Positions 1 to 59,797 are shown, numbered from the stretch's first letter. The stretch is DNA of 64,000 nt from an uncultured Alphaproteobacteria bacterium (GCA_963834165.1 CAWIAL010000019.1:12215-76214); one strand, 5' to 3'. Numbers and translations: made by a program. Notes: generated by a model not told the origin, from the letters alone.

Positions 1-497
1 TGCGCACGAGTGCGGAAGGGGTCTGGGCGCTCGGGGACTGTAACGGCCGGGGCGCTTTCACCCACACGGCCTATAACGATTTCGAAATCGTAGCGGCCAA
101 TCTGCTCGATCACGATCAGCGCTCCGTAGCCGATCGGATCACCGCTTACGCCCTTTTCATCGATCCGCCGCTTGGAAGGGCGGGAATGACCGATGAAGCG
201 GTGCGCAAGTCGGGCCGTCGCGCGCTTCAGGGCATAAGGCCGATGACGCGAGTGGGCCGCGCGGTCGAGAAGGGCGAGACTCAAGGGTTCATGAAGATTG
301 TGGTCGATGCGGACACCAACGAGATCCTTGGCGCCGCCATCCTCGGCCCGGGAGGCGACGAAGCTATACACTGCATCCTCGATACGATGTACGCGAAGGC
401 GCCTTATCCCACGCTACGCCGCGCCATGCACATTCACCCGACCGTGTCGGAATTGATCCCGACGATCCTCGGCGAACTCCAGCCGCTCGTCGCTTAA
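1..497 (+). CDS. FAD-dependent pyridine nucleotide-disulfide oxidoreductase, C-terminal part (5' end outside window)
   Basis: Frame 3 is open from nt 3. Translation reads ..EGVWALGDCNGRGAFTHTAYNDFEIV.. (GD FAD-binding motif), then a dimerisation-domain-like ..MHIHPTVSELIP.. Stop at 495-497. Confidence 0.8.
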   Translation, partial: RTSAEGVWALGDCNGRGAFTHTAYNDFEIVAANLLDHDQRSVADRITAYALFIDPPLGRAGMTDEAVRKSGRRALQGIRPMTRVGRAVEKGETQGFMKIVVDADTNEILGAAILGPGGDEAIHCILDTMYAKAPYPTLRRAMHIHPTVSELIPTILGELQPLVA

Positions 498-3244
498 TGG
501 CAAGCTGGTTCTTCTCCCGGTTCAGCATCTTTCAAGAGGGAAATAATGCAGTTGCGCTCTTCCATGTTGTGCTTGTTATAAATCTGCCCATCGAGATAAG
601 CCTGCAAGGGAGGAGACAGCCACCAGCTCAGCGAGACACTCTTATATTGTGACTGCTGTTGTGCTTTCTTCATGATCCGCATCGCTTTCTCTTCGGCTTG
701 TTCAGGCGTGTCTGTGTATTTCAGGAGCAGTTCCCCAAAGAAGCTGTCTTCGGGTTGCGGGCAAACATGGATTTGCGCTGCGGAGGGGATACCGGCATTC
801 AGTTGGCGCGCTCTCTTGGGCAGTTCCAGGATCGTCTGATAACCCCGTGCAATCCGGGTCGCATTCACCGTGAGCAGGTCCATCAAGGAGCCTATGGGCC
901 GGAAATCGGCCTCGTCCGGGATCTGCGGCCTGGCCGGATAAGCGCTGTCCGCCGCGCAGTTTTTTGCGGCCTCAAACCAAGCCGGCTCGTTTGAGACTTG
1001 CAGGATGAAAGGCAGGAGCCTGCCGTCCAAAGCCTTCAGGCCGCGGGCGATTTCCACCGCAGTCACGATACCCGAATTATCGAAAAATCCCCCATCGACA
1101 ACGCTATCCGCAATTTGAGCCCTCCTGTCCCTGATGTCAGCGTGGGGCGTTACAAAGGGAGAGCGTGAACTGAGGCTGGCCGCGGTGCTGAGGCGGATGT
1201 CGACGGATACGGGCTTCTTTCCCTCGCACTTTACCGACGGGCCGAAAAGCGAAGGAAGCGCGCGGGCCACCTCATCGAGCGGACTGAGTTCGGGGTAGGT
1301 TTTGGTCACAGGGTCGAGGTAAGGAGAGCACAAGAGTTCATGAAAATCATAGGCGTCGGCGAAGAGAACGCTGCCGCCCGTTCCTATTGGATCTGTGATT
1401 TTCACAGGCGTGACGATGATGCGCCGCCCGGTTTGGATCGAGGTCGCGTTCATGAAGATAAGAGGCGTCCAACTCTCCGGGGACGGCGCCATCGCTTGCA
1501 GCGGGCCGGATAAGGGCGACGTTTGCCGTGACATCCCGTAGACCTCGTTGAAGGCTCTCTCCCACGCTGTTTCAAGGACGCCGGCGCGATCCATCACGAA
1601 TGGAAGCCGCGAAAGCATGGGAATGTCCCGCGCGAGGTAGGCAACAACGGTCGGGGAGATGAAGTCGTTGGACAACGCTGCCTGCAGAGTATCCTTGTAA
1701 GTCACAAAATCGGTCAGAAAATCCATGTTTGCGGGATGCGATGCGATTGCGCCAAGCGGCTTTGCTGTCGCGACGTTTGGAAACCACTGCCTTTGCCTGT
1801 AAAGCGCTGTCTTGAGTTCGTTGAGCGGGACATTTTGCTGGACCTTTAAAGCGCTGACAAAGAAGGCCGCCCCCACGGAACTGCCGGATACGCTCGATAT
1901 TGCGAAAAGCTGCTGGTGAAATGGGCGCCCACGCGGGTTTTTCCGTTTGTCGAGGCTGTCGTCTTCAAGAGCGCCAAGCACACTCGCGAGCAGGAACGCT
2001 GCCCTGCTGCCGCCGCCCTCGCCCGCGACGATGATCGGGCGTGGACAGGCGGCGAGCCCGGGCGCGTTCGCTGGGAATTGCTCGCAGCCCGTGGCATTCC
2101 ACCCGCTGGCGGCCTTCCACTCTTTCAGAGCATCGCCAAAAGCAACGGGCTTCAGCGTTGCCTGCTGGTCCTTCGATAGCGTTGCCATGCGCACAGTATG
2201 GCCGTCCCCAATAAAAAGGCCGGCCAAGACGCCAATGACGAGGAACGTAGTAATGAATGGAAACTGATGGCGGTTCGAAAGCAACGCCATGAGCGTCAGG
2301 AAAGGCAGCCACGCGCCAAGCACGATAAATACTAATGGAGCGCGCTTGAGAGAGAGCGTGTCGGCCATGAAATCCCACGCAGCCTGAAGGTTGGGATGAG
2401 ATGAAAGGCCAGACGTTGCAAAAGCTTCGCGGACGCTATCCGAATATGAAAGGAAATGAATCGCAACAAGGACGAGCAACAGGCAAGTAAGAACGCTCAT
2501 GTAGACCCACATGAAGAGCTTAGCCCGCTGCGCTGCGATCCACGTCTCCTGGCTTAGAAACTGAGGCTTCAACGCCGTCAGATGAACGTCATGCTCGTCT
2601 TGCTTTTGATCTTGCTTCCTTGTGAATTCTTCGATGCGTAAGAGGCTATCTTTGCATGTTTTTGGATCGCTACGCTCCAGCTGTTCCATTCTGCGCCGAA
2701 CGTAGCTTATGAATACATCGCGCAATGTAATTGCAATGACAATGCAACCCGTAGCAAAACACAGCATTATCAAGTGGAATCCAAGGAACTTTCTAAGTAT
2801 GACTTCGTATTCGTTTCCACTGGATGGCGATGGAAGATTTTCTGAAGCGGAGATCATGCCAATCAAAACGGCAATGAAAGCCAGAATGGCAAAGACCCGC
2901 GGCAGAACGAAAATATAGAACTTGAACCTGTTTTCTGTATCGACGCCGATCAGATCGAAATTCTGCAGCAGAAGCAGGCGGGTCGTGAAGACCAGCGGAA
3001 GCGCCCAAATGAAAACGCCAATCGCATAAAAGCTGGTCCAGTAAACGACCTCCTGAATCCAGTAAGGCCGGGCATCGAGCAGGAGATCTTGAACTTGAGG
3101 CAGCTCCATAAACGCGTAGAGCCCAACCAGAACGCTGAGGACGCTGAAAAACGAAACGCCGAGAGCGCGAATAAAGAGCCGGGTTTCTGACACTCGGTGA
3201 CGATTATGATGGGAGGGCGCATGCGCTTTGGAGGCTTCTGCCAT
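494..3244 (-). CDS. Polytopic-membrane patatin-like phospholipase (about seven N-terminal hydrophobic helices plus a C-terminal patatin domain)
   Basis: 920-codon ORF. The track start at 3256 is TTG; the first ATG is at 3244. Patatin motifs: GEGGGSRAA (oxyanion hole), SGSSVG (GxSxG nucleophile), VDGGFFDN (catalytic Asp). The first ~400 aa are hydrophobic-helix rich. GC counted 38-42% in 2701-2820. Confidence 0.8.
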   Translation of the reverse strand: MAEASKAHAPSHHNRHRVSETRLFIRALGVSFFSVLSVLVGLYAFMELPQVQDLLLDARPYWIQEVVYWTSFYAIGVFIWALPLVFTTRLLLLQNFDLIGVDTENRFKFYIFVLPRVFAILAFIAVLIGMISASENLPSPSSGNEYEVILRKFLGFHLIMLCFATGCIVIAITLRDVFISYVRRRMEQLERSDPKTCKDSLLRIEEFTRKQDQKQDEHDVHLTALKPQFLSQETWIAAQRAKLFMWVYMSVLTCLLLVLVAIHFLSYSDSVREAFATSGLSSHPNLQAAWDFMADTLSLKRAPLVFIVLGAWLPFLTLMALLSNRHQFPFITTFLVIGVLAGLFIGDGHTVRMATLSKDQQATLKPVAFGDALKEWKAASGWNATGCEQFPANAPGLAACPRPIIVAGEGGGSRAAFLLASVLGALEDDSLDKRKNPRGRPFHQQLFAISSVSGSSVGAAFFVSALKVQQNVPLNELKTALYRQRQWFPNVATAKPLGAIASHPANMDFLTDFVTYKDTLQAALSNDFISPTVVAYLARDIPMLSRLPFVMDRAGVLETAWERAFNEVYGMSRQTSPLSGPLQAMAPSPESWTPLIFMNATSIQTGRRIIVTPVKITDPIGTGGSVLFADAYDFHELLCSPYLDPVTKTYPELSPLDEVARALPSLFGPSVKCEGKKPVSVDIRLSTAASLSSRSPFVTPHADIRDRRAQIADSVVDGGFFDNSGIVTAVEIARGLKALDGRLLPFILQVSNEPAWFEAAKNCAADSAYPARPQIPDEADFRPIGSLMDLLTVNATRIARGYQTILELPKRARQLNAGIPSAAQIHVCPQPEDSFFGELLLKYTDTPEQAEEKAMRIMKKAQQQSQYKSVSLSWWLSPPLQAYLDGQIYNKHNMEERNCIISLLKDAEPGEEPACH

Positions 3245-3265
3245 AAACCCGGCCAAGGATTGCGG

Positions 3266-4867
3266 CTAAACGCGGCGGTTAAAGCCGATATTGTCATCGA
3301 CGACGGTCGCAGGCCCGACAGGGATTTTGGCTGGATTTGTTATGCTGAGCAGCTCGAACTCGATCTTATCGGCCCAAACCTTTCGCAGGAAATCGCCAAA
3401 AACGGCGATGTTGAGGGGTTCGCCGGGGCAGCGCCGGTATCCAAAACCGAAAGGCGCATAGCCCGCGTCATCGCAAACCGGAAGAGCCTTGCCGTCGACC
3501 ACGCCGTAAACAGTGCCGAACGCGCTGTTGGTGATTTCAGCCTTTCTGCCATCGCTGACCGGAAATGAGGTTTTGCCGAAGGGGCACTTCGCGAACCCTA
3601 TCTCTTTCGCTCTGGTTTCGCCGATCTGATCGCTCGTAGGCGCATGGATATAGCGATCGGGATTGAACTCGAGCGGGTTCTTCCAATGGACGGGATCGAA
3701 GCTCGCAGGCGCATGGGGCGTGATTGCATAGACATAGCGGTCTGCACCGTGGACGGGCATCAATTCATGAAGACTGGAAATGCTGCCCGGGTTCGGTGAA
3801 ATCGTCCGGAACAGCTCCATAACGAAACGTTGAAGCGGCGTGAAGGTGGTGCCATCGGCATTATCGTGGTCGCTTTCCATGGTTTTCTTGAACCAGGCCT
3901 TGACAGCCGGGTCGCCGGAGGTTTTCTCCAGCTTGAGCATGATATTATAAAGCGTATCGCCCCACTGGCTGAGGGCGCCGAAGTTGTGAAAACATTCGAA
4001 GACGATATCTTTGTGCCGGAAGTCCTCGCCCTCCTTGCCGTTCTTCGTCCAGTAATAGACAAATGTCTTCTCAGGGTCTTTTATTTTTCCGCTCATGACA
4101 TCGTGCGTCTTCGCTGCGATCCACTCCTTTAGCGGCGTCCGCAGCTCGCGCACTTTCATATAGTTCTCGTAAACAATCCCAAGCATGGGGTTCCGGACGC
4201 CGATAACGGTGTTGAAGCTGTGGCCAATTTGGCGAACGCCGGCCGGGACCTCGTCGCCCTTGACCCCAAGGTGCAGGTCCCAGAACAAATCGGGATAGCT
4301 TTCAAGATAGTGCCGCATCAGCGGCTGGCCGGCGTTTTGCGAGCTGAGAAGCTGGTCGAAGAAGGCCCTGACCTTGTCCGCATACATTGGCTCATAAAGG
4401 TCAGCCGTGAGCGCGGAAATATAAATGCGCTTTCGCCGGTTATCGGGTCCGCGCTTGTCGAGCCCCAGGATGAAGACCGAAAGCCCGTCTTTCTCGAAAC
4501 TTGGCTTCCAATCGTCATAAAGAAGCCCCCAAAGATCGTAAGGAAGCGCATACTCCTTGCTGAGGGCGTCGCCGATCATGGGCACCGGCGGTATGTCCGC
4601 ACGATAGAAGCTGGTGCGCAGGAAGGGCATGACGACGTGCTCGACATAGGCGGGGTCGAAGCCCGTGGGGATTATTTCAGGCGTTTGGCCTTGACCGGTT
4701 CTCTCAGCTGGGGCGCCCATCTGCGCACTGGCCTGCCCTCCGCCGGCGGCCAGCAATCCCGCGGCGCCGGCCACGATCAAGAATTGACGCCGCGCCATGT
4801 CGCCGGGCGCGGTTGCGGCGCTGCCGTCTTCGTTGGGATGGCTCCCCCCCGTTTGCTTCGAACTCAC
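3266..4867 (-). CDS. Twin-arginine-signal cytochrome P450-like haem-thiolate protein (atypical)
   Basis: GTG start with GGGAGG 5 nt upstream. Tat-like motif ARRQFLIVAGAAGLLAAGG..ASAQ. P450 hallmarks: ELFR (ExxR), FNPDRY (PERF-like), FGFGYRRCPG (Cys-ligand loop). Confidence 0.75.
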   Translation of the reverse strand: MSSKQTGGSHPNEDGSAATAPGDMARRQFLIVAGAAGLLAAGGGQASAQMGAPAERTGQGQTPEIIPTGFDPAYVEHVVMPFLRTSFYRADIPPVPMIGDALSKEYALPYDLWGLLYDDWKPSFEKDGLSVFILGLDKRGPDNRRKRIYISALTADLYEPMYADKVRAFFDQLLSSQNAGQPLMRHYLESYPDLFWDLHLGVKGDEVPAGVRQIGHSFNTVIGVRNPMLGIVYENYMKVRELRTPLKEWIAAKTHDVMSGKIKDPEKTFVYYWTKNGKEGEDFRHKDIVFECFHNFGALSQWGDTLYNIMLKLEKTSGDPAVKAWFKKTMESDHDNADGTTFTPLQRFVMELFRTISPNPGSISSLHELMPVHGADRYVYAITPHAPASFDPVHWKNPLEFNPDRYIHAPTSDQIGETRAKEIGFAKCPFGKTSFPVSDGRKAEITNSAFGTVYGVVDGKALPVCDDAGYAPFGFGYRRCPGEPLNIAVFGDFLRKVWADKIEFELLSITNPAKIPVGPATVVDDNIGFNRRV

Positions 4868-5084
4868 GTCAACCTCCCTGGAAGCGCGATTGCAAATCTA
4901 GTTTTGAATAATAAGTGCTGACAATTGACCGTGCATTGGCCAAATTCATATATAATTGATTTTTTATTACGGAAGTATTAGATAAGTATCTCAATCCTGA
5001 ATGTGCTGCAATGTCAAAGCTAGTAATAGTCCCCTTCAGAACGTGGATTTTACTTTTGTCTGCAAAGCAACTCTCTGCGGGAAC

Positions 5085-5792
5085 TCATGACCGGGGCGCC
5101 GCACTGGCGCTCGCACGCATGGCTGCGATAGCCGCCGCGTAATTTCGAGCGCCGAAAATGGCTGAGCCGGCGACGAACGCGGTCGCTCCGGCCGCCGCCG
5201 CCTGCGCAGCCGTCTCCACGTTCTCTCCGCCATCGACCTCGATGACCGGATGCAAGCCGCGCTCGGCGCACATCGCCCGGATCCTCCGGATCTTGGGCAG
5301 CATCTCGGGCAGGAAGGCTTGGCCGCCAAATCCCGGATTCACAGTCATCACCAGGATGACATCGCAAAGATGCAGGACATATTCGATGAAATCCGGCGGG
5401 CTCGCCGGATCCAGCACCACGCCCGCTTTCTTGCCGAGCGCCCGGATCTGAACCAGCGTTCGATGCAGATGATTGGTAAAGCCGGGCGCCGCCTGGACAA
5501 GCAGGTGATCCGCGCCCGCCCTGGCGAAGCCGGCAAGGTAGCGCTCCGGTTCCACGATCATGAGATGCACATTGAGGGGCTTCGCGGTTGACCGCCGGAT
5601 GGCCTCCAGCACGACCGGCCCGAGGGTGATGTTGGGTACGAAGCGGCCATCCATCACATCCACGTGGATCCAGTCGGCGCCGGCCGCATCGACGGCTCGC
5701 ACCTCTTCGCCAAGGCGCGTGAAGTCGGCCGACAAAATCGACGGTGCGATGATGATCGGCGTGTTTGCGTGGGAACTATCGGCTTGGGGCAT
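5085..5792 (-). CDS. rpe: Ribulose-phosphate 3-epimerase
   Basis: ..IIAPSILSADFTRLGEEVRAVDAAGADWIHVDVMDGRFVPNITLGP.. The ATG at 5792 gives 235 aa; the track ORF start at 5972 adds 60 non-homologous residues. Confidence 0.9.
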   Translation of the reverse strand: MPQADSSHANTPIIIAPSILSADFTRLGEEVRAVDAAGADWIHVDVMDGRFVPNITLGPVVLEAIRRSTAKPLNVHLMIVEPERYLAGFARAGADHLLVQAAPGFTNHLHRTLVQIRALGKKAGVVLDPASPPDFIEYVLHLCDVILVMTVNPGFGGQAFLPEMLPKIRRIRAMCAERGLHPVIEVDGGENVETAAQAAAAGATAFVAGSAIFGARNYAAAIAAMRASASAAPRS

Positions 5793-6124
5793 CGATTTCT
5801 TGCGGAGACGGGGGATCTGGGAACATGCAGTAGCATCCAACCGGCCGAGCGCCGTGCAGTTCCCTCGGCCCGGCGTCGTCGTCACGCCGCTAGCAAGCTG
5901 CGGTATGACGTCTGCCAATACGAGGCCGGCGCGCTTCAGGAAACTTGCTGAATTCCCTTTAGGGGTGCTCAACCAAGAACCTCGAGAGTGCGATATGCGG
6001 AAACCTTCGATGGTAAATGTTGTTTGACCAGAGCTGGTTGACGCCAGGGAGGTAGTTTTTGTCCGGCGGTCCGAACTGATGAAATGCAGGACCTGACGCC
6101 GAGGAGCGGCGGCGAGCGCAATTC

Positions 6125-6961
6125 ATGATGACAGCCAGCAAAATCTCGCTTCTGCTCGCCGACGTCGACGGCACGCTCGTCACGCACGAGAAGATTTTGA
6201 CCGAACGCGCCCGCAATGCCGTGCGCTGCCTGCGCGAACGAGGGATCCGGTTTGCAATTACGAGCGGACGGCCGCCGCGGGGCATGGCCATGCTTATAGA
6301 GCCGCTCGCCCTCGATACTCCTATAGCGGGCTTCAACGGCGGAATCTTCGTTCACCCCGACCTGACCATTATCGAGGAGCGTTTGCTTGCCGCCGATGCG
6401 GCTAGGCAAGCCTTGGACATCATCTTGAAGCGTGGGCTCGACGCCTGGGTCTACTGCGGCAACGACTGGCTGGTACGGGACATCGAAGCGCCGCACGTCG
6501 AGCGCGAGGCTTGGACGGTTAAGTTTCGCCCGAAGGCCGTGAAGGATTTTGACGGCGCGCTGCAAAGGGCCATCAAAATCGTCGGCGTGAGCGACGATCT
6601 CGCGAGCGTCGAGCGCTGCGAGGCCGATGCCCAGGCCGCGTTGGGCCATCGCGCGACCGCCGCGCGCTCGCAGCCCTATTATCTCGATGTGACCCATCCG
6701 GACGCGAACAAAGGTTTCGTTGCCGGCTACCTGGCGCGTACGCTCGGGATACCGGCAGAAGCGATCGCAACCATTGGCGATCAGCCTAACGACGTCTTGA
6801 TGTTCAAGCGCTCGGGCCTCAGCATTGCCATGGGCAATGCCAGCGAGGACGTGAAGCGGCAGGCGAGCGCCGTTACAGACCCGGACGGCGATGAGGGCTT
6901 TGCCAAAGCCGTCGAGCGCTTCTTGCTGAGCGCGCATGCTAAAAAGGAGATGGCACCATGA
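6125..6961 (+). CDS. Cof-type HAD-IIB sugar-phosphate phosphatase
   Basis: HAD motif I LLLADVDGTLV; C-terminal IGDQPNDVLMF..GNA motif. Its stop overlaps the tal start (ATGA). Confidence 0.85.
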   Translation: MMTASKISLLLADVDGTLVTHEKILTERARNAVRCLRERGIRFAITSGRPPRGMAMLIEPLALDTPIAGFNGGIFVHPDLTIIEERLLAADAARQALDIILKRGLDAWVYCGNDWLVRDIEAPHVEREAWTVKFRPKAVKDFDGALQRAIKIVGVSDDLASVERCEADAQAALGHRATAARSQPYYLDVTHPDANKGFVAGYLARTLGIPAEAIATIGDQPNDVLMFKRSGLSIAMGNASEDVKRQASAVTDPDGDEGFAKAVERFLLSAHAKKEMAP

Positions 6962-8043
6962 AGCCGACGCAAAAGCTCCATGACCTAGGTCAGAGCCTCT
7001 GGCTCGATAACATCACGCGAAGCTTGTTGAGCTCCGGCACGCTCCGCCGCTACATCGGTGAGCTTTCGGTCACCGGGCTGACATCCAACCCCACCATCTT
7101 CGACCAGGCTATCAAGAACAGCCAGGACTACGACGACGCCATCAGGAAGCTGGTCAAACGGGGTAACTCCGGGGAGGACCTGTTCCTTGAACTGGCCATC
7201 GAGGATATCGCAGCCGCCGCAGACTTGTTCGGCCCGGTGCACGACAGTACCCTTGGCGTCGATGGCTGGGTTTCGCTGGAAGTCTCCCCCTTGCTGGCTT
7301 ATGACACCAAAGCCACGATCGCGATGGCCAAAGAACTGCACGCCCGGGCCGGCCGCCGCAATATCCTGATCAAGATCCCCGGCACAAAAGAAGGGCTTCC
7401 GGCGATTGAAGAAACGATCTTCGCTGGCATACCTGTCAACGTCACGCTCCTGTTCTCGCGCGAGCAGTACCTCGCTGCGTCGGAAGCGTACATGCGAGGT
7501 ATTGAACGGCGGATCGACGCGGGGCTTAGCCCCTTCGTTGGTTCCGTTGCCTCGGTGTTCATCAGCCGCTGGGACGCCGCTGTGATGGGCAAGGTGCCGG
7601 ATGCCATCAGGAACCAGCTCGGGATCGCCATCGCCAAACGTATCTACAGCGCCTACGGCCGACAGCTTGGCTCGGAGCGCTGGATGCGTGCCTACAACGC
7701 TGGCGCTCGTCCGCAACGGCTTTTATGGGCGAGCACAGGCACAAAGGACCCCAGCGCTTCCGACATCCTGTATATCAAGGCACTGGCCGCGCCCTTCACG
7801 GTGAACACCATGCCGGAAGCGACGCTGAAAGCCTTCGCAGACCACGGCGAAATAGGTGCAACGATGTCCCCGCACGGGGGCGATGCCGAGGAGGTGCTGG
7901 CGCGGTTCGCCGAGGCCGGCATCGACGTCGATGCCCTCGCGGCCAGGCTTCAGGACGAAGGTGCGAAGTCGTTCGTCAAATCCTGGAACGATCTCCTGGG
8001 CGTGATCGCGTCCAAATGTGAGGTGCTGGAAAAAGCCGGGTAG
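6958..8043 (+). CDS. tal: Transaldolase (long form, 361 aa)
   Basis: ..LHDLGQSLWLDNITRSLL..TSNPTIF..ILIKIPGTKEGL.. AAGGAGA lies upstream of the ATG. Confidence 0.9.
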   Translation: MKPTQKLHDLGQSLWLDNITRSLLSSGTLRRYIGELSVTGLTSNPTIFDQAIKNSQDYDDAIRKLVKRGNSGEDLFLELAIEDIAAAADLFGPVHDSTLGVDGWVSLEVSPLLAYDTKATIAMAKELHARAGRRNILIKIPGTKEGLPAIEETIFAGIPVNVTLLFSREQYLAASEAYMRGIERRIDAGLSPFVGSVASVFISRWDAAVMGKVPDAIRNQLGIAIAKRIYSAYGRQLGSERWMRAYNAGARPQRLLWASTGTKDPSASDILYIKALAAPFTVNTMPEATLKAFADHGEIGATMSPHGGDAEEVLARFAEAGIDVDALAARLQDEGAKSFVKSWNDLLGVIASKCEVLEKAG

Positions 8044-8047
8044 TCAG

Positions 8048-8768
8048 GTGAGTACTGCTTCAGTTCTCAGTTTCGCGAAAGAGATGCAAGCGGGTGCGGG
8101 CCTGGCACCTTCGCGGGCAGCTGTCAGGAAAGTCCTGGTCGCCGATGTGGGGGGCACCAACGTCAAGCTCCTTGTTACCGGGCAAAGCGAGCCTCGCAAA
8201 TTGGCATCCGGCCCCATGCTTACGCCGGAGCTGATGATGGCCGAAATCGAGCGGCTCATCTCCGATTGGGACTACGAGGCCGTATCGATTGGTTATCCTG
8301 GGCCTGTTCTCGACGGACGTCCGGTGGCAGAACCGCATAATCTGGGAAGCGGCTGGGTTGGGTTCGATTTCGCTGCTGCATTCGGCCGCCCGGTGAAGAT
8401 CGTGAACGACGCGGTCATGCAGGCCATTGGAAGTTACAGGTCGGGAAAAATGCTGTTTCTCGGCCTTGGAACAGGGTTCGGAATCTGCCATCGTCGTCCA
8501 CGGCAATGCTGAGCCTTTGGAACTCGGCCATCTCCCTTACAAGAAGGGCACCTACGAGGATTATGTCGGCCGCCGCGGGCTGGAGCGGAATGGGAAGAAG
8601 CAGTGGCGCCGCGATGTTGCCGATGTAGTCGGACGCCTCATCGCCGCTCTTCAACCGTCCGACACGGTCATAGGCGGCGGCAACGTCTGCAAACTGAAAG
8701 AGCTGCCTCCAAACTCCCGCGCCGGTCATAACGCTCATGCCTTCCATGGTGGATATCGGCTTTGGGAC
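8048..8768 (+). pseudogene. ROK-family (polyphosphate-glucokinase-like) sugar kinase, frame broken by a 1-nt insertion at 8482/8483
   Basis: Frame 2 reads ..[35 protein letters not shown] and then hits a stop at 8510-8512. The homologous continuation [39 protein letters not shown] is in frame 0. Start is GTG 8048 or ATG 8084. Confidence 0.7.
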
Positions 8769-8843
8769 ATACCAGAGCCATATACTTCGCAAGGCGCTCA
8801 TGTTCATTTGCGCGGGCTGAAAGAAGTCGACAGTGGATGGGGG

Positions 8844-10502
8844 ATGCAAATGCTTGACGAAACGTGCGCCATACGTCCAGCCAGGAAGGACGCGGCTTGG
8901 AAGGCCCTTGAAGATCATCAGAAGAAAATCGGCGAGGTCCATCTACGGGATCTCTTCGGCAACGATGCCAGCCGCGGACAGCGCATGACGGCGGAGGCTG
9001 CCGGCGTGTACCTCGACTATTCGAAAAATCGCATCAATGACGAGACGCTCAAGCTGCTTCTCGATCTGGCAGAACAATCGGGTCTTCGCGCGCGCATCGA
9101 CGCCATGTTCCGCGGCGAGAAGATAAATACGACTGAAGGCCGGGCGGTGCTGCATACAGCGCTCCGGGCGCCGGAGGGAGCATCGATTATCGTCGATGGC
9201 AAAAATGTCGTGCCGGAGGTTCATGCCGTGCTCGACAGGATGGCCGACTTCTCGAGGCGCGTCCGTGACGGCGAGTGGAAAGGTCACTCCCGCAAACGCA
9301 TCAGAAATGTCGTCAATATCGGTATCGGCGGCTCGGATCTTGGGCCCGTGATGGCCTACGAGGCCCTGAAGTATTACAGCGACCGCTCTTTAACGTTTCG
9401 CTTCGTCTCCAACATCGATGGCACCGATCTTGTCGAGGCAACGCGCGATCTCGATCCTGAAGAAACGCTATTCATCGTCTCCTCTAAAACGTTCACGACG
9501 CTGGAGACAATGACGAATGCGCACAGCGCGCGCGATTGGCTGCTGAAGGGGTTCGGCGGCGACGAGAAGGCAATTGCCAAGCACTTCGTTGCGGTGTCGA
9601 CAAACGCTTCAAAAGTTTCGGAATTCGGCATCGACACGGCGAACATGTTCGAGTTCTGGGACTGGGTCGGCGGCCGCTATTCCATGGATTCCGCCATCGG
9701 CCTCTCTACGATGCTGGCCATCGGCCCGGAAAACTTCCGCGCCATGCTCGATGGCTTCCATGAAATGGACGAGCACTTTCGCACCGCGCCGTTCGAGCGA
9801 AACCTGCCCGTGCTGATGGCGGTGCTGGCGATCTGGTACAACAACTTCTTCGGGGCACAGACCATCGCGGTCTTGCCCTACGAGCAATACCTCAAGCGCT
9901 TCCCTGCCTATCTCCAGCAGCTCACAATGGAGAGCAACGGCAAACACATAACTCTGGACGGGAAGGAAGTAGATTATCAGACCGGGCCGATTTACTGGGG
10001 CGAACCCGGCACCAATGGCCAGCACTCGTTCTACCAGCTGATCCACCAGGGGACCCGGCTCATTCCCTGCGACTTCATCGCCTTCGAGCAGCCTCTCAAC
10101 CCGATCGGGCGTCATCACGACATGCTGCTCGCGAACGTCTTCGCCCAGGCAGAGGCGCTGGCCTTCGGCAAAACAAGCGAAGAAGTGAAGGCGGAAGGCA
10201 CGCCCGATTGGCTCGTTCCTCACCGCACATTCGAAGGCAATCGCCCATCGAACATGATTCTGATGGAACGGCTGACGCCCGCCGCGCTCGGCAAGCTGGT
10301 CGCGCTCTACGAGCACAATGTTTTCACGCAAGGGGCGATCTGGGACATCGACTCGTTCGACCAATGGGGCGTCGAACTCGGCAAGGTGCTTGCGCAGCGC
10401 ATCATCGGAGAGCTGGAACGCCCAACGGGAACCGAACCCGGCCACGACAGTTCGACCAATGAGCTGATCAACCGCTACCGCAACGCAAAGGCGGCTTCAT
10501 GA
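8844..10502 (+). CDS. pgi: Glucose-6-phosphate isomerase
   Basis: ..[54 protein letters not shown].. The ATG at 8844 gives 552 aa. The same frame is open upstream to 8427. Confidence 0.9.
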
Positions 10503-10577
10503 TGGCACCCTGGGTTCGGTGAGGAACTTTCGGGCTGCCGCTGGGAAGCGGCGACTGAGCTAAGCAAGGAGAATCTC

Positions 10578-11594
10578 ATGCAACTCGGGATGGTTGGACT
10601 CGGCAGAATGGGGGCCAACATGGTGCGGCGGCTCCTGAAGGACGGCCATCAATGCGTGGTTTTCAATAGGTCGCCCAAGCCCGTAGAGGCGATGGTGCAC
10701 GAAGGCGCCATCGGATCCTCCTCGCTCGAAGACATGGCCAGGAAACTGGAGAGACCGCGTGCGGTCTGGTTGATGGTCCCCGCCGCGGCTGTCGACGATA
10801 CAATCGCCGGGCTGCTGCCTCACCTTGAAAGTGGAGACATCCTCATCGACGGCGGCAACTCGTACTATGTGGATGACATCCGGCGCGCCGGTGAGCTCGT
10901 ATCGAAGAATATCCACTACGTGGACGTTGGAACCAGCGGCGGCATCTGGGGCCTGGAGCGCGGTTACTGCCTGATGATCGGCGGCCCCGATCCTGCCGTG
11001 AAGCATCTCGACCCGATCTTCCAGTCGCTCGCGCCGGGCACGGGCCAAATCCCTCGCACGCCAGGACGCGAACACCTCGAAGGCACGGCAGAGCTGGGCT
11101 ATCTCCATTGCGGGCCGAGCGGCGCCGGTCACTTCGTCAAGATGGTGCATAATGGGATCGAATACGGCGTCATGAGCGCCTATGCCGAGGGGCTGAACAT
11201 CCTGCGCCATGCCGATGTTGGCGCGAAACAGCACGCGGTCGATGCGGAGACTACGCCGCTGCGCGACCCCGCGCTTTATCAATACAACTTCAATTTAGCG
11301 GATGTCGCCGAAGTTTGGCGGCGCGGAAGCGTCATTGCCTCCTGGCTGCTGGACCTTTCAGCCGCGGCCTTGGCCAAGAATGCGTCTCTGTCCGGGTTTG
11401 AGGGAAGGGTTTCAGACTCCGGTGAAGGGCGGTGGACGATCAAAGCCGCTATCGATGAAGCGGTGCCGGTGCCGGTGCTCTCTTCCGCGCTTTTTGAGCG
11501 TTTCAGCTCGCGCGGGGAAGCCGATTTCGCCGACAAGCTGTTATCGGCAATGCGCTACGAGTTCGGGGGACATCTGGAGAAATCCAGCAGTTAG
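10578..11594 (+). CDS. gnd: 6-phosphogluconate dehydrogenase, decarboxylating (short, 338 aa type)
   Basis: [38 protein letters not shown].. AAGGAG upstream. Confidence 0.9.
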
Positions 11595-11640
11595 CATCGA
11601 GCAGACTTACGAAAGCCCCATCCGGCCGGGAGGTGCTCTC

Positions 11641-12342
11641 ATGAAGATCGACGTGTTTGCCGACTCCGACGCTGCAGCCCGCGCGGCGGCACGTATCATC
11701 GCCGCTGAGGCACGTGCAGCTGTTGCTGCGCGCGGACAGTTTGTCATGGCTTTCAGCGGCGGCCATACGCCGTGGGTGATGCTGCGCGCGCTTGCGGAGG
11801 AAGATCTGCCCTGGGATAAGGTTCACATCGTCCAGGTAGACGAACGGGTCGCCCCTGCCGGAGACCGCGACAGAAACCTGACCCATCTGCGCGAAAGTTT
11901 GCTCGATCATGCGCCGCTGCGTGCGGATCATGTTCACGCCATGCCGGTGGAGGAATCCGATCTCAACGCCGCGGCTGCTCAATACGCCCGCACGCTGGAG
12001 CGCGTGGCCGGATCGCCGCCGGTGCTCGACCTCGTCCATCTCGGCCTCGGACCCGATGGGCACACGGCGTCGCTCGTGCCGGGCGATCCAGCCCTCGAAG
12101 TCGAAGGCGCGGATGTCGCCGTGACGGGGCCATACCAGGGGCACCGCCGGATGACGTTGACCTACCCTATTCTCAACCGGTCCCGGCGCATTCTCTGGCT
12201 CGTAACCGGCGGCGAGAAGGCGGGGATGCTCGTTCGCCTGCGCGACGGCGATAGCTCGATACCTGCGGGGAAACTGCGTCAGGACAAGGCCCTTATCGTA
12301 GCCGACCGGGCGGCGGCTGAACGGCTCGGTGCAAGCATCTGA
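11641..12342 (+). CDS. pgl: 6-phosphogluconolactonase
   Basis: ..FVMAFSGGHTP..VHIVQVDERV..DLVHLGLGPDGHTASL.. The ATG at 11641 is preceded by GGGAGG. The track ORF start at 11302 lies inside gnd. Confidence 0.85.
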   Translation: MKIDVFADSDAAARAAARIIAAEARAAVAARGQFVMAFSGGHTPWVMLRALAEEDLPWDKVHIVQVDERVAPAGDRDRNLTHLRESLLDHAPLRADHVHAMPVEESDLNAAAAQYARTLERVAGSPPVLDLVHLGLGPDGHTASLVPGDPALEVEGADVAVTGPYQGHRRMTLTYPILNRSRRILWLVTGGEKAGMLVRLRDGDSSIPAGKLRQDKALIVADRAAAERLGASI

Positions 12343-12356
12343 TTGGAGGCGAAACC

Positions 12357-14462
12357 ATGAGTGAAACCGCCGCTCATCCAGATCCGGAGATCAACACCCG
12401 CTCGATGACCCCTGAACAACTGGATCAACTGTCCATCAATACTATCCGCACGCTCTCGATGGATGCGGTGCAGCAGGCAAACTCTGGCCATCCCGGCACG
12501 CCGATGGCACTTGCGCCGCTTGTCTACACGATCTGGAACCGCGCGCTGCGCTTCGATCCGCAGGACCCGATTTGGCCAGACCGCGACCGGTTCGTGCTCT
12601 CGAACGGACACGCGTCGATGCTCTTGTGGTCTGTCCTTCACCTGACTGGGACGCGCGGAGTGAATGCCGACTACGAGCTGCTCGGGCAGCCGGCGGTGTC
12701 GCTGGACGACATCCGCCATTTCCGCCAGCTCAACAGCAAGGCGCCCGGTCATCCCGAGTACCATTTGGTTTCGGGTGTCGAGGCTACGACCGGTCCGCTC
12801 GGGCAGGGCGTGGCCATGAGCGCCGGCATGGCCATCGCAGAAAAGTGGCTCGCCAAACGCTACAACCGCCCCGGTTTCGAGATCTTCGACTACAATATTT
12901 ACGTGACTTGCAGCGATGGCGACATGATGGAAGGGGTCGCGTCGGAAGCGGCTTCGCTCGCAGGCCACCTCAAATTGGATAACCTCTGCTGGATATACGA
13001 CAACAACCATATCACGATCGAGGGGAAGACCAAGATCACCTTTACGGAAGACATCGCTTGCAGGTTTCAAAGCTACGGCTGGAGCGTCCTGCGCGTGGGC
13101 AATGCCAACGATATGGAACTTATCGAGAATGCGTTGGATGTCTTCCGGAAGACCAAGGACCGCCCGACGTTCATCATTCTCGACAGCCATATCGGCTATG
13201 GCGCGCCTCACAAGCACGACACGGCCGCGGCTCACGGCGAACCTCTCGGCGAAGAGGAGGTCCGGCTCGCGAAGCGCTTTTATGGCTGGCCCGAGGACGC
13301 AAAGTTTCTTGTTCCCGATGCGGTACGCAAACACTTCGCCGATGGAGTAGGCGCACGCGGCGCGGAGGCGCGGCGGAGGTGGAACGAACTCTTCGCTGCC
13401 TATCAGGGCAAATATCCCGAACTCGCCGCAGAAATAGACCTCATGCAGCGGCGCGAGTTGCCGGAAGGCTGGGAGCGCAATCTCCCGGTTTTTCCCGCCG
13501 ACCCCAAGGGCATCGCGGGGCGCGAAGCTTCAGGCGATGTGCTGAACGTGCTTGCGCAAAATATTCCCTGGCTTGTCGGCGGGTCGGCAGACCTCGGCAC
13601 GTCCAACAAAACCACGCTGAAATTCGAGGGCGCCGGGGACTTCGAGCCCGAGACGCCCGGCGGAAGGAACCTGCATTTCGGCATTCGCGAGCACGCTATG
13701 ATGGCGGCGGTCAACGGTCTGTCCCTATCGAAGCTCAGGGCGTTCGGCGCGACTTTCCTTATATTCAGCGATTACGCGCGCCCCGCCATACGCCTTGCGG
13801 CCATCATGGAGCTGCCGGCGATTTTCATCTTTACCCATGACGCCATGGGCGACGGTGAGGATGGCCCCACCCATCAGCCGGTGGAGCAGCTTGCCTCGAT
13901 GCGTGCGATCCCCGGTCTGGTTGTGATTCGGCCTGCCGACGCCAACGAGGTCGTGGAAGCCTACAGGTATATCATTCAGCTCCGGCACGAGCCGGCCGCC
14001 CTGGCGCTCTCGCGCCAGCCGTTGCCGACATTGGACCGCAGCAAATACGCGCCCGCCTCCGGAGTGGCGCGCGGCGCTTACGTGCTGGCCGATGCACCGG
14101 GCGGAAAGCCCGAGGTCATCCTCATCGCCACGGGCAGCGAGGTTTCTCTCGCCGTCAAAGCCCACGAACAGCTTTTGGCCGACGGCATCCGTTCCCGCGT
14201 GGTCTCCATGCCATCCTGGGACATCTTCGAACACCAGCCGCAGGAATACCGCGACAGCGTGCTCCCGCCGGATGTGACGGCTCGCGTCGCGATAGAGCAG
14301 GCTTCGACATTCGGATGGGAGCGGTACGTGGGCTGGAAAGGCCGCGTTATCGGCATGAAAACTTTCGGCGCGTCCGCTCCGCTCAAGGAACTTCAAAAGA
14401 AATTCGGCTTCGAGCAAGACTGCGTGCTGGAAGTCGTGAAGGAATTGCTCGGCAGGGCTTGA
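12357..14462 (+). CDS. tkt: Transketolase
   Basis: ..SGHPGTPMALAPL..DRDRFVLSNGHASMLLW..GPLGQG..THDAMGDGEDGPTHQP.. Confidence 0.95.
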   Translation: MSETAAHPDPEINTRSMTPEQLDQLSINTIRTLSMDAVQQANSGHPGTPMALAPLVYTIWNRALRFDPQDPIWPDRDRFVLSNGHASMLLWSVLHLTGTRGVNADYELLGQPAVSLDDIRHFRQLNSKAPGHPEYHLVSGVEATTGPLGQGVAMSAGMAIAEKWLAKRYNRPGFEIFDYNIYVTCSDGDMMEGVASEAASLAGHLKLDNLCWIYDNNHITIEGKTKITFTEDIACRFQSYGWSVLRVGNANDMELIENALDVFRKTKDRPTFIILDSHIGYGAPHKHDTAAAHGEPLGEEEVRLAKRFYGWPEDAKFLVPDAVRKHFADGVGARGAEARRRWNELFAAYQGKYPELAAEIDLMQRRELPEGWERNLPVFPADPKGIAGREASGDVLNVLAQNIPWLVGGSADLGTSNKTTLKFEGAGDFEPETPGGRNLHFGIREHAMMAAVNGLSLSKLRAFGATFLIFSDYARPAIRLAAIMELPAIFIFTHDAMGDGEDGPTHQPVEQLASMRAIPGLVVIRPADANEVVEAYRYIIQLRHEPAALALSRQPLPTLDRSKYAPASGVARGAYVLADAPGGKPEVILIATGSEVSLAVKAHEQLLADGIRSRVVSMPSWDIFEHQPQEYRDSVLPPDVTARVAIEQASTFGWERYVGWKGRVIGMKTFGASAPLKELQKKFGFEQDCVLEVVKELLGRA

Positions 14463-14475
14463 TTCGAGGTCGGAC

Positions 14476-16647
14476 GTGGCGTTCAAAGTTGAGGTAGGTC
14501 CGCCGCAAATATCCATTCATTATGGTCAGACGGTGCTGATCACAGATCTCGACGGCCAAGTCCGATGGCCGAGCGAACGCGGCCTTTTCTTTTTCGATAC
14601 CCGCGTGGTCAGCAGCTGGATGATCTACGCGAATGGTGAGCCCTTTGACCTTCTCAGTGGCGGCGCCACGACCTACTACACCTCGACCGTCCAACTCACC
14701 AATCGCACCATCCCGACGGAGGATGGCGCCATTCCACCGCGTACGCTGGGCCTCTCCGTGAGCCGATCCGTCGCCGGCGGCATGCACGAGGACCTGGACA
14801 TTTCCAATAACGGCATGAAGCCGGTGCGCTTCCAGCTTGAGATCGCACTGCGCTCCGACTTTGCTGACATCTTCGAGGTCAAATCGGGCACCATCGTGCG
14901 TCGCGGGCGCATCACCACGGAATGGTCCGATGCGGAACAGGAGCTGCGCACAACGTATCGCAACGCCGACTTCATGCGCTCGCTGACCGTCGCGCCGAGC
15001 GGAGGCGAGCCCCGGGCCGTCTATGCCAACGGGCGGCTCAGCTTCGAGGTATGCCTCCCTCCAGGCGGGTCGTGGCATTGCTGCCTCCATTACTCGCTGA
15101 CGGATGGCGAGCGCCGGTTTGAGTCTCCGCACCCTTGCGTCGCGGACAGCGACAAGCTTCGGCACGCCGAGACGCTCGCCGACTGGCTGAGGACGGTCCT
15201 GCGCATCCGCACCAGCAACGAAGAGTTCTACCGCCTTTATCGTCAGGCGCTGGAGGACATGGCTGCGCTGCGCCTGCCCATCGGCGGCACCGATCATATG
15301 GCGTTTCTGCCCGCTGCGGGTCTGCCCTGGTTCGTCGCTCCGTTCGGCCGCGACAGCCTTATCGTCTCGCTCCAGAACCTGCTGATCTATCCTGAGTTTG
15401 CGCGCGGCGCGCTGGACATCCTCGGATCGCTTCAGGCGAAGGAGGAGGATAGCTATCGCGATGCGGAGCCAGGGAAAATTCTGCACGAAATCCGCTACGG
15501 CGAGCTCGCGCATTTCAAGCTGATCCCGCACACGCCCTATTATGGCACCGCCGACGCCACGCCCCTTTATCTGATCACCCTCCACGGTGCATGGCGAGCG
15601 CTTGGGGACATCGCGCTCCTCGAACAGCATTTGGATACCGCCGAATCCTGTCTCGCCTGGATCGACAATTACGGCGACCTCGACGGCGACGGGTTCCAGG
15701 AATATCAGACCCGCTCTCCGGCCGGTTACGAGAACATGGGCTGGAAAGATTCGGGCGACGCCATCGTCTATCCGGACGGATCGCTAGTGAAGGGGCCAAA
15801 GGCGCTCTGCGAGTTGCAGGGCTATGTTTACGACGCATGGCTATGCATGGCGCAAATCTTCGATGCACTCGGCAAACATGACCGGGCTCGCGAATTGCGG
15901 ACGAAAGCCGCTGTTCTGTTCAAGCAATTCAATGAGGCTTTCTGGGACGAAGACTCAGGGTTCTACGCCCTTGCCCTCGATGGCGATAAGAGGAAGGTGC
16001 TTACGGTTGCGTCCAACCCTGGCCACTGTCTCTTGTCAGGCATCGTGCCCCATGATCGCGCTCGGAAGGTGGTGGAGCGGCTCATGGCGCCCGACATGTG
16101 GAGCGGCTGGGGCATACGCACTCTTTCGGCGCTGCATCCGGCGTTCAATCCCTACAATTACCAGACAGGGTCGGTTTGGCCGCATGACAACGGGCTCATT
16201 GCGGTGGGTTTCAAGCGCTATGGCTTCGGCGCTGAAGCGGCTCGCATCGCGCGCGACATCAGCGAGGCCGGAACCCATTTCCTGTTGAACAGGCTGCCCG
16301 AGCTCTACACCGCCCACCCGCGGGACGGGACGACATTCCCCGTGCAATATCTCGGCGCAAACGTGCCGCAAGCCTGGGCCGCGGGCTCCGTATTTAGTCT
16401 GATGCAGGCAATGCTGGGCTTTATGCCGGATGCGCCGAACGGCAAGCTCTACATCGATCCCTTGCTGCCGCGCTGGCTGCCCGATCTCACCGTGTTCGGC
16501 CTGCGCGTCGGCAGGCACCAATTCGACATCAGCTTCTGGCGCGAAGGCGAGGAGACGAAGTTCGACGTGTTGCGCGGTGATCCGAACGCCGTCGAGCGCA
16601 GCAGCGCCATCGTGCAAAGCGACCGGCTGAAGCTCGGATGCGCATGA
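14476..16647 (+). CDS. Amylo-alpha-1,6-glucosidase / glycogen-debranching-enzyme-family protein
   Basis: GTG start 13 nt after tkt. Motifs FGRDSLI, EPGKILHE, YYGTADATPLY, GWKDSGD, ELQGYVYDA, WSGWGIRTLS, YQTGSVWPHDN. Confidence 0.8.
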   Translation: MAFKVEVGPPQISIHYGQTVLITDLDGQVRWPSERGLFFFDTRVVSSWMIYANGEPFDLLSGGATTYYTSTVQLTNRTIPTEDGAIPPRTLGLSVSRSVAGGMHEDLDISNNGMKPVRFQLEIALRSDFADIFEVKSGTIVRRGRITTEWSDAEQELRTTYRNADFMRSLTVAPSGGEPRAVYANGRLSFEVCLPPGGSWHCCLHYSLTDGERRFESPHPCVADSDKLRHAETLADWLRTVLRIRTSNEEFYRLYRQALEDMAALRLPIGGTDHMAFLPAAGLPWFVAPFGRDSLIVSLQNLLIYPEFARGALDILGSLQAKEEDSYRDAEPGKILHEIRYGELAHFKLIPHTPYYGTADATPLYLITLHGAWRALGDIALLEQHLDTAESCLAWIDNYGDLDGDGFQEYQTRSPAGYENMGWKDSGDAIVYPDGSLVKGPKALCELQGYVYDAWLCMAQIFDALGKHDRARELRTKAAVLFKQFNEAFWDEDSGFYALALDGDKRKVLTVASNPGHCLLSGIVPHDRARKVVERLMAPDMWSGWGIRTLSALHPAFNPYNYQTGSVWPHDNGLIAVGFKRYGFGAEAARIARDISEAGTHFLLNRLPELYTAHPRDGTTFPVQYLGANVPQAWAAGSVFSLMQAMLGFMPDAPNGKLYIDPLLPRWLPDLTVFGLRVGRHQFDISFWREGEETKFDVLRGDPNAVERSSAIVQSDRLKLGCA

Positions 16648-58406: not shown

Positions 58407-58814
58407 ATGTCGAAAGGAACCATCATGAGCCGCTTGGCTATCGCTATCGCTGCCACAGCCCTCTTACCCTTTGCCGCCTCTGGTGAGGAGAAAACGCTCC
58501 ATTCTGAGTACAGCGCTTCGGTTTCGACCTACAAGCCGTTGCAAGGTTTCAGCCATGTGGTCGGTGAAAGGCATTTTGTCGGTTATTATATAGTGTCCAG
58601 TAACGGCTGCGCGGTGACCGTTATCAACGCAACCGCGGGTGACGAGCGCCTTCTGGAGACCCCGCGCCGGCAGAAGTTCGACCTTCCGGCTGGCGGCCGC
58701 ACTGAAATCAAGGCTGACCACGGCAAAGCGCTTGCGGTAGCTTGCAACGCAGACGGCGCAGCAATCACCGTCGCCGCTCTCGAACCGGGCGTCGGGCCGT
58801 CTGCCAGCTGGTAA
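58407..58814 (+). CDS. Secreted hypothetical protein
   Basis: Signal peptide MSRLAIAIAATALLPFAASG (ATG at 58407 or 58425). Preceded by a ~450-bp AT-rich gap. Confidence 0.45.
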   Translation: MSKGTIMSRLAIAIAATALLPFAASGEEKTLHSEYSASVSTYKPLQGFSHVVGERHFVGYYIVSSNGCAVTVINATAGDERLLETPRRQKFDLPAGGRTEIKADHGKALAVACNADGAAITVAALEPGVGPSASW

Positions 58815-58951
58815 GTTTGGCGGCCCCTTTTCCGCCGAAGCCTGGGCGATTGCCCATCAATCCGTGCTACCTCCAGCACTCGCTTTGGCCCATGAAGCTC
58901 ATGGGCCAAAGCTTTGGTTCACGTACCGCAGCACCAAGTTGCGCAGCTCGC

Positions 58952-59770: not shown

Positions 59771-59797
59771 GCCGGTCTCCCTTCAGCGGAGAATACC

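Follow-up and report, generated by a model that had tools for sequence, protein, structure and literature searches.

A predicted Tat-exported P450-like protein encoded beside a seven-helix patatin-type lipase in an uncultured alphaproteobacterium

We analysed 64,000 nucleotides of DNA from an uncultured Alphaproteobacteria bacterium (GCA_963834165.1, CAWIAL010000019.1:12215-76214; hereafter the window, meaning the whole of this stretch), in which two adjacent minus-strand genes encode a divergent cytochrome P450-like protein (gene 1) and a polytopic membrane protein with a patatin-type lipase domain (gene 2). Sequence comparison and structure prediction strongly suggest that gene 1 is part of an extensive branch of the P450 superfamily that is as yet uncharacterised, that the proteobacterial members of this branch carry a twin-arginine translocation (Tat)-type signal, and that the gene 2 product sits in the inner membrane and exposes to the periplasm an acyl hydrolase domain of patatin type that is rich in disulphides. 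We give a probability of roughly 0.4 to a coupled reading of the two genes, in which both products would act on envelope lipids. For the gene 1 family as a whole, there is in our estimation close to an even chance that it forms a widespread class of Tat-exported periplasmic P450s that operate without an NAD(P)H-linked partner and receive hydrophobic substrates from COG4313 channels or from a lipase with seven transmembrane (TM) helices. The interest of the locus lies mostly in this exported P450 family and less in the gene pair. The locus is laid out as follows.

494..3244, minus strand: gene 2, polytopic membrane protein whose C-terminal domain has a patatin fold, 916 aa (open reading frame [ORF] with an ATG start)
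3245..3265, minus strand: intergenic spacer of 21 nt without a terminator-like site (TAG ends at 3266, ATG at 3244)
3266..4867, minus strand: gene 1, divergent P450-fold protein of predicted haem-thiolate type, 533 aa (ORF with a GTG start)
4868..5084, minus strand: AT-rich upstream region, 38.7% GC (composition count and site scan)

Direct reading of the ORFs confirmed the arrangement reported in a preliminary description of this DNA. Both genes are intact at these coordinates, the spacer is 21 nt long, GGGAGG lies 5 nt upstream of the GTG of gene 1, and the AT-rich gap reported before gene 1 is borne out by its base composition. The gene 2 product would measure 920 aa if the TTG at 3256 were taken as the start. 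A sigma-70-like, promoter-like site (TTGTCA-18-TAGATT) is located upstream of gene 1 at 4924-4895; over 4868-5084 as a whole, such sites are no commoner than in shuffled sequence. Furthermore, a conserved element, ATCAATTATA, was found on the minus strand at 4960-4951, approximately 95 nt upstream of the gene 1 start. The same element lies equally far upstream of the P450-like genes of loci L001, L087 and L006 (four loci including the window), with the variants ATCCATTATA in L001 and ATCCATTATG in L006, and is present with or without a lipase gene downstream. Neither the window nor the upstream region gave any match when scanned against Rfam or for repeats. Genes 1 and 2 are probably read from one promoter within the AT-rich region. 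At the position of the ATCAATTATA element, loci L007-L009 display GGAAC...GTT, which resembles a promoter of the extracytoplasmic-function sigma factor type.

Homologues of gene 1 number at least 1363 in a set of 5.8 billion proteins, and relatives are encoded in the genomes of at least 465 species. Their hosts include Hyphomicrobium, Bradyrhizobium, Methylobacterium, Mesorhizobium, Achromobacter and Yersinia frederiksenii, together with many heterocystous cyanobacteria and one Ktedonobacteraceae metagenome-assembled genome (MAG), and identity between phyla is still 55-65%. The window protein scored 16.6 bits against Pfam p450 (PF00067; cut-off 22.8) with a match confined to the Cys-ligand loop, and no NCBIfam model matched it above its cut-off; three divergent full-length members (P0244, P0290 and P0267) exceed the Pfam cut-off with 26.4, 25.5 and 24.6 bits, respectively. 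Two profiles were compared with the PDB: A1, composed of close relatives of gene 1, gave marginal matches (E 0.012 or worse), and A4, which comprises A1 plus divergent family members, matched CYP1A2 at E 1.2e-6, all 74 PDB sequences at E <=0.1 being P450s. An exhaustive profile search of the family returned 865 representatives at E <=0.001, mostly fragments of the same family. The AlphaFold2 (AF2) model of gene 1 is of moderate quality (mean predicted local distance difference test score [pLDDT] 62.8; predicted template modelling score [pTM] 0.67), and its top 50 Foldseek matches in the PDB are all P450s (best E 2.5e-5, template modelling [TM]-scores of about 0.4). Because the A4 profile matches PDB P450s and the fold matches are exclusively P450s, membership of the P450 superfamily, proposed in the preliminary description, is well supported even though the Pfam score alone is sub-threshold, and a P450 fold with a Cys ligand can be strongly inferred. 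The moderate quality of the AF2 model and its poorly predicted Cys-loop region count against this. An hhalign comparison of A1 with P450cam aligned the Cys loop alone and left the I-helix residues unplaced. The fold assignment itself is not new since many family members are already labelled 'cytochrome P450' at JGI.

An 800-aa protein, P0246 (locus L171, 3167-5569), bears a Ferritin-like domain (PF12902, E 2.6e-51) N-terminal to a divergent P450-like member, a fusion that might point to a partner of di-iron or oxidant-generating type; the neighbourhoods of P0246 and of P0064 contained no functional clue. Within the window, a 533-aa ORF at 58742-60343 was considered as a second P450 copy and rejected as an Arg-rich spurious ORF.

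The following features were recognised in gene 1.

4724..4867, minus strand: predicted Tat signal peptide, residues 1-48 (R26-R27-Q-F-L, a G/A-rich h-region, and A46-S47-A48 followed by Q49)
3929..4015, minus strand: predicted I helix, residues 285-313 (AF2 secondary structure and column counts)
3806..3817, minus strand: ExxR motif E351-L-F-R354, invariant in A1 and A4 and aligned with the ExxR of CYP1A2
3458..3649, minus strand: family-specific insertion, residues ~407-470, with conserved C428 and C465 (hidden Markov model alignment; low pLDDT)
3422..3451, minus strand: Cys-ligand loop F473-G-F-G-Y-R-R-C480-P-G482, invariant

The Cys loop, E351-x-x-R354 and the PERF-type motif F401-N-P-D-R405-Y are invariant in 26 and 22 sequences. 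All of the motifs noted in the preliminary description (ARRQFLIVAGAAGLLAAGGGQASAQ, ELFR, FNPDRY and FGFGYRRCPG in gene 1; GEGGGSRAA, SGSSVG and VDGGFFDN in gene 2) were found and are invariant or nearly so in homologues. The distance between FNPDRY and the Cys loop, put earlier at about 70 residues, was also recovered, as we counted 74 residues between Y406 and C480. In the A4 alignment this stretch spans about 62 residues compared to about 15 in CYP1A2, corresponding to an insertion of about 47 residues. The segment between the meander and the Cys loop is located on the redox-partner face of canonical P450s.

The I helix displays a family signature, D287..E291-x-F-H294-N295-F-x-A-x-S-Q-W-G-(N/D)-T305, in which H294-N295 is invariant throughout the core family. 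This helix had been described as lacking the usual acid-alcohol pair on the strength of the string FHNFGALSQWG. The string is indeed present, but it ends just before G303-D304-T305. Residues 303-305 read G-N-T in the family consensus and G-D-T in the window protein, and T305 is found in 23 of 26 sequences. As N/D304-T305 is conserved, and D-T is what the window protein has at these positions, a pair of this kind may be present.

Among known P450s, the family most often matched by the gene 1 protein and profiles, in colinear segments, is CYP152 (P450 BSbeta, SPalpha, OleT), with 6fyj reached at E 8.6e-5 by A4 only. CYP152 enzymes share the P450 fold and act on free fatty acids with H2O2 and without a redox partner. 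Unlike gene 1, they are cytoplasmic proteins of about 420 aa that have neither the signal peptide nor the insertion of about 47 residues, and they carry an Arg-Pro in the I helix and an H-R-C-A-G-E Cys loop. A weak, colinear alignment sets this Arg-Pro at V/G297-A298 of gene 1. The NCBIfam CypC model gave 12.2 bits against a cut-off of 600, which places the window protein outside CYP152. CYP74 enzymes (allene oxide synthase and hydroperoxide lyase) convert lipid hydroperoxides with no O2 activation or redox partner, using a catalytic Asn of the I helix, and have an altered, lengthened Cys loop. The invariant H294-N295 of the gene 1 family is comparable to the Asn of CYP74, but its Cys loop is of the canonical FxxGxRxCxG type, and no CYP74 structure occurred among the profile matches at E <=10 or the top 50 fold matches. 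The lipid-hydroperoxide or oxylipin-like chemistry suggested in the preliminary description was thus not substantiated: there is no specific match to CYP74, the similarity to CYP152 is weak, and nothing goes beyond analogy.

The Tat motif of gene 1 reads A-R-R-Q-F-L-I. An RR-type motif is present in 81 of the 120 best homologues, and R-R-x-F-L, the G/A-rich h-region and A-x-A are kept in all close alphaproteobacterial relatives, the N-termini being otherwise variable. Orthologues from Serratia and Paraburkholderia exceed the cut-off of the Tat model TIGR01409 (16.7 bits) with 22.4 and 21.4 bits, respectively, plasmid-borne orthologues are annotated in RefSeq/PGAP as 'twin-arginine translocation signal domain-containing protein', and the sole PDB match of the N-terminus of the window protein is the Tat signal region of Streptomyces SCO3963. 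Judging from these sequence features, the gene 1 product is likely exported. The usual view of bacterial P450s is of enzymes that reside in the cytoplasm and are supplied by a ferredoxin or flavoprotein partner, and no description of a Tat-exported or periplasmic P450 was found in the open-access literature that we searched. The DyP-type peroxidases EfeB/YcdB, haem b enzymes that are folded with their cofactor, exported by Tat and use peroxide in the periplasm, set a precedent for a Tat-exported haem b enzyme, although their fold is unrelated and their haem ligand is His instead of Cys.

Gene 2 is made up of two parts, whose features are listed below.

2195..3244, minus strand: membrane domain, residues 1-350, with seven TM helices (hydropathy, positive-inside counts and AF2 helices)
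494..2062, minus strand: patatin-fold domain, residues ~395-916, predicted periplasmic (invariant columns and Foldseek)
2003-2017, minus strand: oxyanion motif G410-G411-x-S413-R414, invariant
1886-1888, minus strand: nucleophile S453, invariant within S-V-S-G-[SG]
1091-1096, minus strand: D717-G718, invariant (D717-G718-G)

We identified 133 homologues of gene 2, chiefly in Rhodomicrobium and relatives, plus distant soil sequences; this family, which includes Rvan_3329 of Rhodomicrobium vannielii ATCC 17100, is far narrower than that of gene 1. As anticipated from the preliminary description, hydropathy delineated seven hydrophobic segments (residues 28-46, 66-93, 111-129, 154-172, 244-262, 304-322 and 328-346) ahead of the invariant patatin motifs. 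Topology was assigned by rule from hydropathy and Lys/Arg counts, by which the inside holds the N-terminus as well as the loops that follow helices 2, 4 and 6; across 29 homologues, the mean number of Lys and Arg residues is about 19.9 on the predicted inside compared to 5.7 on the predicted outside. Because there are seven helices and the charge bias sets the N-terminus inside, the patatin domain is predicted to be periplasmic. Had the two domains been predicted on opposite sides of the membrane, the earlier proposal would have been difficult to sustain; instead, the topology places the patatin domain on the same periplasmic side as an exported P450. Furthermore, eight cysteines of the patatin domain are conserved in 17-29 of the 29 sequences, unlike those of the membrane part, a pattern that fits disulphide bonds formed in an oxidising compartment.

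In the AF2 model of gene 2 (pLDDT 78.7, pTM 0.83), the C-terminal domain was matched by Foldseek to CapV, CapE, cPLA2 delta and patatin, with target TM-scores of up to 0.59 and E-values from 5e-4 to 1.3e-2; the membrane domain had no structural match in that search. The match of gene 2 to Pfam Patatin (PF01734) takes in only the C-terminal portion of the profile and, with 22.8 bits, stays below the cut-off of 27.7; several homologues have precomputed PF01734 matches. The nucleophile elbow S-V-S-G-S departs from G-x-S-x-G in having another residue in place of the first Gly. With CapV/CapE and potato patatin, the domain has in common a Ser-Asp dyad and a Gly-rich oxyanion loop; unlike these soluble cytoplasmic proteins of 300-360 aa, which keep the G-x-S-x-G elbow, it extends over about 520 aa with large insertions and carries the eight conserved cysteines. 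Another point of comparison is PlpD of Pseudomonas aeruginosa, a bacterial patatin-like lipase that is likewise held at the envelope by a membrane domain and whose patatin domain is periplasmic. However, PlpD is anchored by a 16-stranded outer-membrane barrel with POTRA, and gene 2 by seven inner-membrane helices.

In the coupled reading, the cytoplasm is where the gene 1 product would fold and take up haem b; the Tat system would then export it, with cleavage after A-S-A. Envelope phospholipids would be hydrolysed by the gene 2 lipase to fatty acids or lysolipids. Such a product would then serve as the hydrophobic substrate of the P450-like enzyme, which would either oxygenate it in a peroxide-driven reaction or rearrange it and would need no NAD(P)H-linked redox partner. 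We consider that such a partner is most likely dispensed with because the periplasm is devoid of NAD(P)H and ferredoxin and because the insertion falls on the segment of the partner-docking face. In agreement with the earlier remark that no ferredoxin or reductase is encoded nearby, the ten large ORFs that we scanned from 186 to 25838 include neither a ferredoxin nor a ferredoxin reductase gene, the abutting flavoprotein being of the disulphide-reductase type. In genomes where the two genes are paired, the lipase product would be a natural candidate substrate for the P450. Several points weigh against this reading. The conserved N/D304-T305 could be a variant proton-relay pair, and c-type cytochromes or other periplasmic electron donors are conceivable for gene 1. 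The action on envelope lipids is plausible but no more.

How seldom the two genes occur together also weighs against this reading. We examined the neighbourhoods of the best 80 genome loci of the gene 1 family and of 80 metagenome loci of gene 2 relatives. A lipase gene lies beside the P450-like gene in 1 of the 80 other genome loci (L002) and is absent from the remaining 79; conversely, no P450-like gene was found near the lipase relatives of the 80 metagenome loci (61-67% and 24-31% identical), nor near the lipases of L082/L083 (66% identical), L175 (69%) and R. vannielii. Intact pairs occur in the window (and in L090, its Logan copy), in L002, in L087/L088 and in L089, whose contig carries only the C-terminal half of the P450 gene. 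The lipases of these loci are those most similar to that of the window (74-81% identity), and their P450s form one shallow clade within which the unpaired L001 is nested (neighbour-joining, without bootstrap). In locus L081 (6842-7956), the lipase gene is intact, but the P450 gene beside it has cleanly lost 256 bp from its interior, and with them the I helix and ExxR. The P0124 contig shows a 104-aa DUF4331 fragment directly before an intact lipase gene and no P450, and one Rhodomicrobium MAG bears both genes on different contigs (ACLPIX_18815 and ACLPIX_01855). Neither family has a universally conserved neighbour. The deletion in L081, the loss in P0124, the split MAG and the one-clade distribution indicate that the association is young, narrow and dispensable; it is nonetheless real, and both families otherwise stand alone. 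Conservation of the pair as neighbours elsewhere, on which the preliminary description had staked its proposal, is therefore confined to one shallow clade.

These data equally feed a first alternative, which we regard as a serious possibility at somewhat below even odds: a lipase gene would already have been resident in the ancestor of a small clade when the P450-like gene arrived upstream of it with its own AT-rich promoter region, and each product would work alone, as in nearly all other genomes. The stand-alone habit of both families, the restriction of the pair to one clade and the loss or decay of the P450 gene next to intact lipase genes speak for this explanation, and the ATCAATTATA element accompanies P450-like genes that have no lipase gene (L001, L006). 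Moreover, the lipase gene lies beside sugar-metabolism genes in R. vannielii, the window and L087, so that its position looks older than the arrival of the P450. Conversely, the contexts of the pair differ: it is flanked by rpe in the window and by pgi and the glucose-6-phosphate dehydrogenase gene in L087/L088, it follows DUF4331 in L002 together with a CAP-domain gene, and it has an integrase and an IS91 transposase downstream in L089. The pair has therefore stayed together through rearrangements, at least three of them affecting its flanks and one involving a mobile-element context. Coupling is also favoured by the short, terminator-free spacer, by the predicted exposure of both products to the periplasm, and by a second recurrent partner that the P450 family has elsewhere, which likewise deals with hydrophobic molecules in the envelope.

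This other partner is an outer-membrane barrel (PF13557, COG4313) whose gene adjoins the P450-like gene in 10 of 82 loci, on either side and on either strand: L076 (Yersinia frederiksenii), L085 (a Serratia fonticola plasmid), L086 (a Paraburkholderia plasmid), L045, L054, L055, L059, L069, L072 and L077. These loci span alpha-, beta- and gammaproteobacteria, their channels are 60-70% identical between loci, and the Serratia and Paraburkholderia plasmid copies are flanked by insertion sequence (IS) elements, which suggests that the P450-like gene and the COG4313 channel gene form a mobile two-gene unit. The barrel matches Pput2725 (4RL8, E 3.5e-6), a COG4313 channel whose family has been linked to the import of hydrophobic molecules (PMC4493636), and the COG4313 member SphA imports the lipid sphingosine (PMC4493636). 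The COG4313 neighbour thus argues independently for periplasmic action and a hydrophobic substrate of the P450 family. A theme common to both associations would be a periplasmic P450 supplied with a hydrophobic substrate by an envelope partner, either a lipase or a COG4313 channel.

The same neighbour lends itself to a second alternative, unlikely in our view, in which the gene 1 product would be a periplasmic haem-thiolate peroxidase, a detoxifier or a binder of haem or ligands dealing with imported xenobiotics or aromatics, lipids being irrelevant. The COG4313 family was first noted in contexts of phenol and aromatic degradation (PMC4493636), the IS-flanked plasmid copies are typical of accessory catabolic or resistance genes, one member is fused to a Ferritin-like domain, and a single, invariable small substrate would fit the very high conservation between phyla. 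However, no conserved catabolic pathway genes surround the family, its weak sequence similarity is repeatedly to fatty-acid peroxygenases, and sphingosine, the molecule imported by SphA, is itself a lipid (PMC4493636).

Two further neighbours recurred in the genome loci. The commonest immediate neighbour, directly upstream in 14 of 80 loci (L022, L024 and 12 others), encodes a DUF308 membrane protein of about 190-220 aa, perhaps HdeD-like, to go by its name. In 16 loci of the Hyphomicrobium group, including L029, a 347-aa cytoplasmic-type patatin (PF01734, 84 bits) is encoded about 5 kb upstream of the P450-like gene. We rejected it as a partner of the P450, given the unrelated genes in between (predicted AI-2E-type transporter and metallophosphoesterase genes) and their mixed orientation; the arrangement is probably lineage synteny.

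A third alternative, still less probable, holds that the N-terminus of gene 1 does not function as a Tat signal; the protein would stay in the cytoplasm, like its cyanobacterial relatives, or be tethered to the membrane through an uncleaved hydrophobic segment, on the opposite side from the lipase domain. The Tat signal claimed for the window protein is recognisable as a conserved motif shared with orthologues that pass TIGR01409; the window protein itself remained below the cut-off of this model with 7.5 bits and had no Pfam TAT_signal match. Its n-region is long (25 residues). Furthermore, the homologues without RR are mostly cyanobacterial and share a conserved N-terminus, MSFFPILD.SEFF, and these signal-less relatives are 60-64% identical. 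Against a non-functional signal stand the preservation of R-R-x-F-L, h-region and A-x-A in every close alphaproteobacterial relative, the scores of the orthologues, and the outer-membrane channel neighbours found elsewhere, which imply periplasmic action.

Finally, an anti-phage or toxin module with the patatin protein as a membrane-disrupting effector is very improbable: structurally, the lipase domain is matched best by the effectors CapV and CapE of CBASS (cyclic oligonucleotide-based antiphage signalling systems), but neither protein had a PADLOC match at E <=0.1, no cyclase, sensor or immunity genes were found nearby, the domain is predicted to be periplasmic and disulphide-rich, and the gene is a stable chromosomal resident beside housekeeping sugar genes in Rhodomicrobium species. 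The defence-system reading was rejected accordingly on the PADLOC result.

If the proposed class of exported P450s exists, P450 chemistry would extend to a new compartment and follow a partner logic that is likewise new. A periplasmic haem-thiolate enzyme would bring this chemistry to the cell envelope and could provide partner-free, peroxide-driven catalysts for biocatalysis, and the gene 2 type, a patatin domain facing the periplasm on seven TM helices, would be a new route for remodelling or scavenging envelope lipids in diderms. The gene pair matters less, as one hint on the substrate class of the P450 family and not as a general system.

The preliminary description also took the two genes for a low-GC module acquired horizontally. 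The GC content of 2701-2820 is indeed low (40.0%), but the deep dip is limited to the part of gene 2 that encodes the membrane domain. The module as a whole has 56.0% GC compared to a window mean of 60.7% (standard deviation 2.2, 4.4-kb windows), so the claim was overstated. Moreover, the GC content at third codon positions of gene 1 (70.6%) is similar to that of pgi (71.5%), and composition therefore backs a recent arrival only weakly.

On its other side, the lipase gene meets the remaining feature mapped next to the module.

186-497, plus strand: 3' end of a pyridine-nucleotide-disulphide oxidoreductase gene (Pyr_redox_dim), which runs off the start of the window

This gene is convergent with gene 2 and overlaps the lipase stop by 4 nt; its product is of the disulphide-reductase type, not of the ferredoxin reductase type. 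From 5085 to 16647, the module is bordered by a pentose-phosphate and carbohydrate cluster comprising rpe, a HAD phosphatase gene, tal, glk, pgi and genes for 6-phosphogluconate dehydrogenase, transketolase and a GDE-like hydrolase. The L087 pair lies in a similar sugar cluster, and the R. vannielii lipase gene comes after otsB, GH15, otsA and glk. Within the cluster of the window, the ROK-family glucokinase gene is seemingly split by a frameshift into an N-terminal part at 8018-8512 (plus strand) and a C-terminal part at 8427-~8740 (plus strand, other frame). The latter corresponds to the first ~105 residues of an over-long 'pgi' ORF (8427-10502), and the PGI of a relative aligns with this ORF only from residue 105. 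The split glucokinase is either a pseudogene or the product of an assembly indel. Further along, positions 20976-25838 (plus strand) encode a bacterial alpha-2-macroglobulin of 1620 aa in which the set of macroglobulin (MG) domains is complete, and the next large ORF lies at 25991-28066.

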